Source: Escherichia coli (GTDB taxonomy: Bacteria > Pseudomonadota > Gammaproteobacteria > Enterobacterales > Enterobacteriaceae). From it: a stretch of 64,000 bases of DNA. Under the pieces are notes generated by a model. It was not told the DNA's origin. It did not search any database and saw nothing but the letters and a program-made list of their open reading frames with translations. Positions 8,434 through 38,390 of this stretch are shown here, piece by piece (the first letter of the stretch is position 1; every line of letters starts with the position of its first letter). The stretch is taken from the NCBI RefSeq assembly GCF_003991155.1, contig NZ_CP031293.1; one strand, given 5' to 3'. The position numbers and the translations under genes were made by a program.

Positions 8434-9081
8434 TTATTCGTTAGTGGCAGGATTACGAAGCGTGGGGCACAGGAGATACATCTCCAGTAAGATGGCGACG
8501 TAATCGCGGGCTTCTTTTTTAAGATCAAAAGATTGCGGGGCAAAGAGCCAGTTTTCCATCAGGCCGGAAATATAGCCGCGCATAATAATTGCTGCGCGAC
8601 GCGTCATTAAATCCGCAGGCAACATTTTCGCTTCAATACAATGTTTTAACGTTTGTTCTATACGGTCATAACTTTCCAGACAGAGATTACGTTGTGCCTG
8701 TTGCACAACAGCCATTTCTCCGACAAATTCGCATTTGTGGAATATAATCTCCATCAATAATCGACGCCGTTCTTCTGTCACCGTGGATTCAAGAACATGA
8801 ATTAATATCTCTCTTAATACTGAGAGTGGATCGCCAGGGAATTTTGCCTGATACTCAAGCTCTAGTTCACCAATATTGGATTCTGACAGTTCCCAGATCT
8901 CACTGAACAAATCCGACTTGTCTTTAAAATGCCAGTAGATTGCACCGCGCGTAACGCCAGCTGCTTTTGCAATCTCACCCAGCGAGGTGGATGATACCCC
9001 CTGCTGTGAGAAAAGACGTAGAGCCACATCGAGGATGTGTTGGCGCGTTTCTTGCGCTTCTTGTTTGGTTTTTCGTGCCAT
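8434..9081 (-). CDS. acrR: TetR-family repressor AcrR
   Basis: 215-aa [62 protein letters not shown] (TetR HTH); divergent from acrA. Confidence 0.95.
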
Positions 9082-20589: not shown

Positions 20590-21876
20590 TTACGCGTTAT
20601 AGGCATTCTCGCCGTGGCTGTTGACGTCCAGCCCTTCTCGCTCCTGTTCTTCCGGTACACGCAGACCAACCGTCAGATCCGCCAGTTTGTAGCCAATAAA
20701 CGCCACCACACCGGACCAGACGATCGTAATGGCGATGCTTTCCAGCTGTACCAGCAACTGATGGCCCATCGTCACACCTTCAGCGAAGCCCACGCCGCCC
20801 AGCGAGCTGGCGGCAAAAATCCCGGTCATGATACAGCCGACAATGCCACAAACGCCGTGCACACCGAAAACATCGCAGGGATCATCCACCCGCAGCAAAC
20901 GTTTGAGCATGGTAACGCCCCACAAGCCCGCCAGACCAGCTACCACGCCGATAATCAACGCGCCGCCAACCCCAATGTAGCCACAGGCTGGCGTCACGCC
21001 GACCAGACCGGCAATCGCGCCAGAACACGCTCCCAGCAGTGAAGGCTTACCGCGCAGCGCCCATTCACCGAAGATCCAGCCAAGAATTGCTGCCGCCGTT
21101 GCGACCACAGTATTCACAAATGCCAGTGCTGCGATTTCATTCGCCGTGCCCGCTGACCCGGCGTTAAAGCCAAACCAACCGATATAGAGAATGGCAGTCC
21201 CGGTGAAGACCATCGGCAGGTTGTGCGGTTTAAACGCCTCTTTGCCGAAGCCCACGCGTTTGCCTATCAGATACGCGCCCACCAGACCGGCGATTGCGGC
21301 GTTAATGTGCACCACCGTGCCACCCGCGAAATCCAGTGCACCGTGAGAAGCCAGCAAACCGCCGCCCCAGACCATATGCGCAATCGGAATGTAGGAGAGC
21401 GTCAGCCATACCACCACGAAAATCAACACAGCTGAGAAGCGGATTCGTTCCGCCAGTGCTCCAACTATCAAGCCTACGGTAATGCAGGCAAACGATCCCT
21501 GAAACGCTACGTGGATATACTGATAAATGCTGCCCATCACCGCCGTCAGTTCGATGTTTTTCAGCATCAACCAGTTAATGTTGCCGAAGAAGTTGTTTCC
21601 CTCACCAAACGCCAGCGAGTAACCGTAAACCACCCAGAGAATACAGACCAGTGCAAACGTCACCGTCACCTGCGTCAGCATCGACAGCACGTTTTTGCCG
21701 CGAATCAACCCACCGTAAAACAGGGCAATCCCCGGAATAGTCATAAACAGCACCAGCGCAGTACAAATCATCATAAACGCATTGTCGGCTTTATCGGCCA
21801 CCGCAGGTGCAGCCATTACCAGTCCCGGCAGCATCGCCAGTGAAGCAAGCCCAGTTTTTATCGTCGCTATCTTCAT
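20590..21876 (-). CDS. amtB: Ammonium transporter AmtB
   Basis: 428-aa ORF MKIATIKTGLASLAMLPGLVMAAPAVADKADNAFMMICTALVLFMTIPGIALFYGG; Amt/MEP family. Confidence 0.96.
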   Translation of the reverse strand: MKIATIKTGLASLAMLPGLVMAAPAVADKADNAFMMICTALVLFMTIPGIALFYGGLIRGKNVLSMLTQVTVTFALVCILWVVYGYSLAFGEGNNFFGNINWLMLKNIELTAVMGSIYQYIHVAFQGSFACITVGLIVGALAERIRFSAVLIFVVVWLTLSYIPIAHMVWGGGLLASHGALDFAGGTVVHINAAIAGLVGAYLIGKRVGFGKEAFKPHNLPMVFTGTAILYIGWFGFNAGSAGTANEIAALAFVNTVVATAAAILGWIFGEWALRGKPSLLGACSGAIAGLVGVTPACGYIGVGGALIIGVVAGLAGLWGVTMLKRLLRVDDPCDVFGVHGVCGIVGCIMTGIFAASSLGGVGFAEGVTMGHQLLVQLESIAITIVWSGVVAFIGYKLADLTVGLRVPEEQEREGLDVNSHGENAYNA

Positions 21877-21905
21877 TTTTCGTTCCTGTTGCTGTGTGCC
21901 AGAGA

Positions 21906-22244
21906 TTACAGCGCCGCTTCGTCGGCTTCGCCGGTACGAATACGAATGACGCGTTGCAATTCAGCGACGAAGATTTTGCCGTCGCCAATTTTTCCGGTGT
22001 AAGCCGCCTTACTGACGATATCAATCACTTCATCGAGTTGGTCATCAGCAATCGCCACATCAATTTTTACTTTTGGCAGGAAGTTGACGCTGTATTCCGC
22101 CCCCCGGTACAGCTCGGCATGCCCTTTCTGACGCCCGAAACCTTTCACTTCGGTGACGGTCAGGCCCTGAATACCAATGGAAGATAACGCTTCACGAACG
22201 TCTTCCAGCTTGAATGGTTTGATTATCACGGTCACCAGCTTCAT
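21906..22244 (-). CDS. glnK: Nitrogen regulatory protein P-II 2 (GlnK)
   Basis: ORF 21906..22382; canonical 112-aa start MKLVTVIIKPFKLEDVREALSSIGIQGLTVTEVKGFGRQKGH at 22242-22244. Confidence 0.95.
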   Translation of the reverse strand: MKLVTVIIKPFKLEDVREALSSIGIQGLTVTEVKGFGRQKGHAELYRGAEYSVNFLPKVKIDVAIADDQLDEVIDIVSKAAYTGKIGDGKIFVAELQRVIRIRTGEADEAAL

Positions 22245-22295
22245 AGATCCCCTCCGGTCAGAATTCGGTAATGGTTCTGCTACACGAAGAAGGTA

Positions 22296-22312
22296 TTGCA
22301 AGCGGTGTGCCA
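22296..22312 (-). promoter_or_regulatory. Sigma-54 (-24/-12) promoter of the glnK-amtB operon
   Basis: Minus-strand sequence TGGCACACCGCTTGCA (GG-N10-GC spacing), about 55 nt upstream of the glnK start. Upstream palindromes (GCACTATGACAGTGC at 22364-22380; TGCACCA near 22397) could be NtrC sites. Confidence 0.8.
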
Positions 22313-22424
22313 GAAATGAAAAACGAGAAAGAGAGCAGGAAGTTAAGAAGATTGAAAATGAAAACGCACTATGACAGTGCACAGTGCGTTACATTTTTGC
22401 ACCAACGATCAAATATTGCGCTAT

Positions 22425-25971
<3,547 letters not shown>

Positions 25972-30493: not shown

Positions 30494-32939
<2,446 letters not shown>

Positions 32940-38177: not shown

Positions 38178-38356
38178 TTCCGTCTCCTGGATAAAATTGA
38201 AAAAACCTGCTGTACCGATTGTAACCTTATGGACGGATTATCAGCTAGTCCCTGTGTTATGGGTACGGCATCACCATATTTCAAGCATAACAATCTTTTG
38301 TTGTTACGCTAACACCGAAAGAGGCTTTTCGCACGGTTCCATGCAAAATTCATGAC

Positions 38357-38390
38357 AAAAAAAAGCCCACCACCTGGCGGTGACGGGCCT
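38357..38390 (-). terminator. Intrinsic terminator of tig
   Basis: Minus-strand GCCCGUCACC-GCCA-GGUGGUGGGC followed by UUUUUUUU, about 33 nt after the tig stop. Confidence 0.8.

Follow-up and report, generated by a model that had tools for sequence, protein, structure and literature searches.

The mdlB/glnK spacer of Escherichia coli as the sigma-54-dependent promoter glnKp, with a possible overlap between its NtrC enhancer and an mdlAB terminator

Introduction

Several described systems bear on the spacer studied here. The E. coli promoter glnAp2 depends on sigma-54, and NtrC-P activates it from paired upstream dyads by looping (PMC1865078, PMC3870243). It contains two high-affinity sites at -108 and -140, that is, 32 bp apart, as well as 'governor' sites of low affinity, and the sigma-70 promoter glnAp1 overlaps it. 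The glnK-amtB operon of E. coli is driven by glnKp, a textbook case of NtrC/sigma-54 control that also serves to report NtrC activity. This promoter has been proposed to fire only above an NtrC threshold (PMC3870243). In 2015 EcoCyc had the glnK promoter as 'predicted', not confirmed (PMC4591121). Both the RpoN holoenzyme and NtrC have been found in vitro, by gSELEX, on the mdlB/glnK spacer (PMC8743547). When glnG is deleted glnK mRNA is not readily detected, and complementation restores it (PMC4066584).

A second described property of glnKp concerns transcripts that enter it from outside. When a 50-bp glnKp fragment is transcribed from upstream it silences the downstream gene, and does so without any need for rpoN (Levy et al., bioRxiv 10.1101/086108). 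The same study traced the silencing to base pairing of the ribosome-binding site with 7 CT-rich nt centred at -4.

Here we compare with these systems the mdlB/glnK spacer contained in a 64-kb (64,000-nucleotide) stretch of E. coli DNA, hereafter the window. We conclude, with a probability of roughly 0.93, that this spacer corresponds to glnKp and drives the E. coli glnK-amtB operon in a sigma-54-dependent, NtrC-activated manner, an identification that is already known. We also describe a hairpin that overlaps the candidate NtrC sites and a stepwise variation of the distance between enhancer and promoter across species.

Results

The locus is that of K-12

The spacer between mdlB and glnK covers 180 bp (22245-22424), and the flanking genes are all encoded on the minus strand. 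On its 5′ side lies mdlB (22425..24206, minus), a co-directional ABC transporter gene whose TGA stop codon occupies 22427-22425 (minus) and whose start was set from the 1782-nt length of K-12 mdlB. On the other side lie the glnK coding sequence (21906..22244, minus; 112 aa), which encodes a PII-type nitrogen regulator and whose ATG begins at 22244, and amtB (20590..21876, minus; 428 aa), the second gene of the operon, which encodes an ammonium transporter. All three genes were identified from the list of open reading frames and from the RefSeq annotation under identical E. coli matches. The 1.1 kb surrounding the glnK promoter are 100% identical to several E. coli chromosomes, in which mdlB, glnK and amtB are annotated, and the same 1.1-kb region is found in 5,423 of the 5,426 complete E. 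coli genomes. The co-directional neighbour 5′ of glnK was mdlB at every locus that we checked. A Shine-Dalgarno sequence for glnK, GGAGGGG (22249..22255, minus), is kept in the enterobacterial alignment described below.

Comparison with K-12 MG1655 revealed two SNPs in 211 aligned bases (at 22410 and 22351), neither of them inside a motif, so that the K-12 literature is directly applicable to this sequence. The likeness to K-12 glnKp extends to the spacer sequence bar these two SNPs, to the sigma-54 17-mer and to the flanking mdlB, glnK and amtB, and we found no substantive difference: the element is that of K-12, present here in a different E. coli strain.

The sigma-54 promoter core

A first-pass annotation, made from the sequence alone, had placed a TGGCAC-N5-TTGCA element on the minus strand about 55 nt before glnK. 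The element is present at 22312-22297 (minus; TGGCACACCGCTTGCA), with its -24 element TGGCAC at 22312-22307 and its -12 element TTGCA at 22301-22297, and the actual gap between its last base (22297) and the A of the glnK ATG (22244) is 52 nt. It belongs to the 17-mer CTGGCACACCGCTTGCA (22297..22313, minus), which we designate the sigma-54 promoter core. Promoters of this class carry GG at -24 and GC at -12, and their transcripts begin about 12 nt past that GC. This is the sole exact match to TGGCAC-N5-TTGCA in the window, where 0.10 are expected, and 10 of 100 shuffled sequences contained one. The annotation had also suggested a scan with an RpoN position weight matrix. We ran it with a matrix derived from the 41 other intergenic-sense ChIP-seq sites of PMC4591121, leaving glnK out. 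The glnK site scored 16.2 bits, against a training median of 15.85, and ranked third among the ~128,000 positions of the window; the top-ranked match is a training site upstream of clpP.

The matrix also recovered published sites elsewhere in the window. A match at 38342-38358 (minus; TTGTCATGAATTTTGCA) is ChIP-seq site OS02, upstream of clpP, and another at 9040-9056 (plus; TTGGCGCGTTTCTTGCG) is site IA05, inside acrR. A further match, CTGGCATTATTAATGCT at 30715-30731 (plus), lies antisense within ybaV and reaches 16.5 bits, slightly more than the glnK site; it is absent from the ChIP-seq tables in the main text of PMC4591121.

Published binding data place sigma-54 on the same 17-mer. In K-12, the motif of ChIP-seq peak OS03 is CTGGCACACCGCTTGCA, with its centre at 471761 (U00096.2) and a signal 18-fold over threshold (PMC4591121), and this coordinate converts to position 22305 of the window, the centre of our 17-mer. 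Following the rule of that study, by which transcription starts 19 bp past the motif centre (PMC4591121), the start is predicted at ~22286 (22285..22287, minus), with a leader of ~42 nt. This position agrees with the CT-rich 7 nt described by Levy et al. as 'centred at -4' (bioRxiv 10.1101/086108).

Functional data are available for the orthologous promoter of Salmonella. Fused to lacZ, this fragment gave 1.1 Miller units when nitrogen was abundant, and nitrogen limitation raised the activity ~1600-fold, to 1778 (PMC3844500). Activity was sigma-54 dependent, and the site is TGGCACATCCTTTGCAAT (PMC3844500). Together with the published binding of sigma-54 and NtrC, this reporter supports the nitrogen-limitation control of glnK-amtB that had been proposed for the locus.

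Candidate NtrC sites and their conservation

The first-pass annotation had further noted, upstream of the promoter core, a palindrome and a TGCACCA element that resemble NtrC half-sites. Both strings are where it had put them: the palindrome, GCACTATGACAGTGC, at 22366-22380 (plus), which reads GCACTGTCATAGTGC on the glnK strand, and TGCACCA at 22398-22404 (plus), which reads TGGTGCA on that strand. We scored 17-mers on 14 positions against the NtrC consensus TGCACCAnnnTGGTGCA, taken from PMC8743547. The palindrome falls in candidate NtrC site 1, TGCACTGTCATAGTGCG (22365..22381, minus), which agrees with the consensus at 10 of 14 positions and is centred at 22373, about -87 from the predicted start. 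A weaker candidate, NtrC site 2 (TGCAAAAATGTAACGCA; 22385..22401, minus), agrees at 9 of 14 and is centred at about -107; it is the more upstream of the two, with 20 bp between the centres. TGCACCA is best taken as the left edge of this weak 17-mer rather than as a free-standing half-site.

The presence of the strings stands, but their agreement with the consensus is at chance level. In the window, 31 17-mers match TGCACCAnnnTGGTGCA at 10 or more of the 14 positions, the expectation from shuffled sequence being 31.3 ± 5.4, and GCAC-N7-GTGC occurs twice against 1.9 expected. NtrC-like strings thus appear at the rate expected by chance, and the significance of sites 1 and 2 has to come from position, conservation and published binding data instead of the consensus match. 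Consensus and mismatch counts were dropped as evidence for calling NtrC sites. We also set aside a third NtrC-like dyad, AGCGCCTGAATAGCGCA (22433-22417, minus), which lies 32 bp further upstream than site 2, across the mdlB stop codon, and scores 9 of 14: it is probably due to chance, since its conservation fails as near as E. albertii and Citrobacter. Inspection by eye of the DNA between enhancer and promoter revealed no match to the IHF motif WATCAANNNNTTR.

Binding of NtrC in this region has been observed in nitrogen-starved E. coli, in which ChIP-seq yielded a 39.7-fold peak at 471741-471821 that was assigned to glnK-amtB (PMC4066584). This bin corresponds to 22245-22325 of the window. The sites that we propose are located 40-130 bp upstream of it, which is within the resolution of ChIP.

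Conservation was assessed at two scales. A scan with the GlnK protein, using one genome per species, returned 79 loci across Gamma- and Betaproteobacteria, and upstream of glnK a sigma-54 match of at least 14 bits was found in the sense orientation at 61 of them and in the antisense orientation at none of the 79. For 16 Enterobacterales, ranging from Escherichia to Photorhabdus and an Orbaceae genome, we also aligned the 240 nt that precede glnK, which gave a mean column identity of 40%. Outside the coding sequence and the ribosome-binding site, the only invariant or nearly invariant columns are GCAC (22380-22377), T22371 and GTGCG (22369-22365), TGGCA (22312-22308) and TTGC (22301-22298). The sigma-54 element is kept in sense orientation, at 14 bits or more, in all 16 species, and GCAC-N7-GTGC is found in 15 of the 16 upstream regions, whose spacers have otherwise diverged. 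The NtrC site is better in other genera than in E. coli, for example TGCACCGTCATGGTGCG and CGCACTAATTTGGTGCG (with GGTGCG). The more upstream site is also traceable: TGGTGCA-N10-CGCA is conserved in 8 Enterobacteriaceae, and Yersinia aldovae, Rahnella and Acerihabitans possess a second TGCAC- or CGCAC-type 17-mer exactly 20 bp upstream, the same offset as E. coli TGCAAAAATGTAACGCA. In NtrC enhancers, neighbouring sites serve to nucleate the oligomer. This shows that the NtrC sites of E. coli are not callable from the consensus alone, and that conservation and spacing bear the evidence. On the strength of that conservation, the exact assignment of sites 1 and 2 is likely to be correct.

The distance between the centres of GCAC-N7-GTGC and of the sigma-54 element varies in steps. 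Across 28 lineages we recorded values of 68, 78-79, 89-92, 99, 109-114, 120-125, 132 and 164 bp, the shortest being those of E. coli (68 bp) and E. albertii. Rayleigh analysis of these spacings gave a period of 10.5-10.75 bp with R = 0.72, a value that none of 5000 random sets reached, and a figure that overstates the independence of the observations because the lineages share ancestry. Despite this shared ancestry, stepwise differences of this kind are what a helix-face constraint on a looping activator would produce.

A hairpin over the candidate enhancer

The palindrome is embedded in a hairpin. A terminator scan identified, 34 nt past the mdlB stop codon, the sequence AACGCACTGTG-CACTGT-CATAGTGCGTT (22390-22363, minus) followed by the tail TTCATTTTCA, the whole element extending over 22353..22390 (minus), with an 11-bp stem and a 6-nt loop. 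This stretch takes in NtrC site 1 and the right-hand end of NtrC site 2. The first-pass annotation, which had rightly reported the string, described it only as NtrC-like and missed both this hairpin and the insulator layer presented in the next section.

Folding of an 81-nt RNA gave -23 kcal/mol (z = -2.86), and none of 200 shuffled sequences did as well. In 9 Enterobacteriaceae, 95.6% of the cells are paired and the CGTTTT run is invariant. Covariation is restricted to one pair (C-G to U-A). Of 500 shuffles, 3 performed equally well, and the test is confounded because the arms double as NtrC-like half-sites. The compensating change occurs in the upstream arm (CGCACT to CGCATC or CGCACC), outside the left half of NtrC site 1, and points to an RNA hairpin in preference to a protein dyad. 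An Rfam scan of 21500-23000 returned nothing beyond a meaningless snoRNA match (E = 0.32).

Like rho-independent terminators, the element has on the transcribed strand a stem-loop that contains G+C and then a T-run, here 34 nt past a stop codon. It differs from them in that its stem and loop double as a candidate activator binding site, and in that its T-run is interrupted (TTTTCATTTT). From the terminator scan, the fold and the conservation, we judge it rather probable that the hairpin and its T-run are the intrinsic terminator of mdlAB and that in Enterobacteriaceae this terminator overlaps the glnK enhancer.

A stricter version of this idea would make the palindrome the mdlAB terminator and nothing else, its resemblance to an NtrC site being coincidental and NtrC binding elsewhere in the spacer or only at TGGTGCA. 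The chance-level match to the NtrC consensus would be in keeping with this, as would the quality of the conserved 11-bp hairpin with its T-run and its one covarying pair, and the palindrome is away from the centre of the NtrC ChIP-seq bin. However, Yersinia, Rahnella, Acerihabitans and Photorhabdus lack the T-run and the long stem and yet retain GCAC-N7-GGTGCG. Conservation extends to the TGCAC of the loop, of which a terminator has no need. Finally, the spacing between palindrome and promoter is helically phased, which is sensible only for a DNA-bound activator. A palindrome with the terminator function alone is hence very improbable, and we retain it as part of candidate NtrC site 1. The same ~28 bp in Enterobacteriaceae may serve both as the mdlAB terminator hairpin, in RNA, and as the main NtrC enhancer site of glnK-amtB, in DNA, a proposal that we advance as tentative.

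The anti-Shine-Dalgarno stretch

Between the -12 element and the predicted start lies the CT-rich stretch CCTTCTTC (22286..22293, minus), which is the glnKp anti-Shine-Dalgarno 'insulator' of Levy et al. We folded the native sequence and compared the accessibility of the glnK GGAGGGG (22255-22249) in two RNAs. Its mean probability of being unpaired was predicted to be 0.60 in the RNA starting at 22286 and 0.01 in the read-through RNA, the latter value being low because GGAGGGG pairs with CCUUCUUC (22293-22286). Folding predicted an effect in the same direction, often weak, in 14 of 16 Enterobacterales. The sequestration that Levy et al. described is reproduced in silico, as a folding prediction, in the native glnK context; their tests had used reporter constructs with a synthetic ribosome-binding site.

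These features also bear on whether the -24/-12 element is productive. Many of the sites that sigma-54 occupies in ChIP do not coincide with known promoters (PMC4591121), and the glnK start at 22286 is a predicted one; the element could accordingly be a site that sigma-54 occupies unproductively, with glnK expressed from an overlooked sigma-70 promoter or by transcription that continues from mdlAB. A promoter scan of 21800-22800 found no sigma-70-like promoter, however, and a terminator-like hairpin lies upstream. The read-through RNA is moreover predicted to be untranslatable, as was shown experimentally in constructs (bioRxiv 10.1101/086108). In addition, glnK mRNA requires NtrC (PMC4066584), and the Salmonella promoter fragment is by itself dependent on sigma-54 and on nitrogen (PMC3844500). 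We consider unproductive binding highly improbable, and read the element as the functional core of glnKp.

The leader region of a different group of loci drew our attention in the course of the species comparison. In Pseudomonas and Stutzerimonas (L016-L044) the sigma-54 motif is situated 180-210 nt upstream of glnK, and the leader contains a highly conserved block of ~75 nt, ~110 nt before glnK (for example L030:2390-2500), with a GACUUG/CAAGUC hairpin. RNAalifold predicted 17 pairs in this block, 2 of them covarying, and a search of Rfam gave no match at E <= 0.1. The block is possibly an undescribed leader element.

Discussion

Our reading of the spacer as glnKp leads to the following model for its activity. 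The starting point would be sigma-54 RNA polymerase held at the -24/-12 element (22313-22297) in a closed complex that is inactive, its occupancy being known from published ChIP-seq. Upon nitrogen limitation NtrC-P would bind the imperfect dyad at 22381-22365 and the weaker dyad at 22401-22385, 20 bp upstream, the exact sites being those that we infer from conservation. As established for this family of activators, NtrC would then assemble into an ATPase ring, loop the ~70 bp of DNA to the polymerase and open the promoter, and transcription would begin near 22286, the predicted start. Both NtrC sites are poor matches to the consensus, so that activation should require abundant active NtrC, and this fits the late, starvation-only induction that has been published.

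Two further elements would keep the operon silent in this model. The hairpin and T-run over site 1 probably end mdlAB transcripts and would thereby help to silence the operon. The CT-rich stretch would add a second silencing layer by pairing with the glnK ribosome-binding site in read-through RNA only, as has been published for glnKp and as our in silico folding reproduces.

Compared with glnAp2, with its high-affinity sites 32 bp apart, glnKp has two imperfect sites 20 bp apart, at about -87 and -107, and no sigma-70 promoter was found there, in line with its description as a 'simpler' promoter (PMC3870243).

Part of the worth of this analysis is to show that the earlier call of the promoter was right, and as a discovery it has little significance. 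What goes a little beyond the literature that we found is the overlap between terminator and enhancer and the helically quantised distance of the enhancer, both of them modest. If the dual role of the palindrome is true, its sequence would be constrained by both functions at once, and NtrC bound there could in addition obstruct or tune read-through. With the anti-Shine-Dalgarno stretch added, the arrangement would amount to a three-layer insulation of a tightly off promoter, and the distance of the enhancer would be free to evolve in whole helical turns only.
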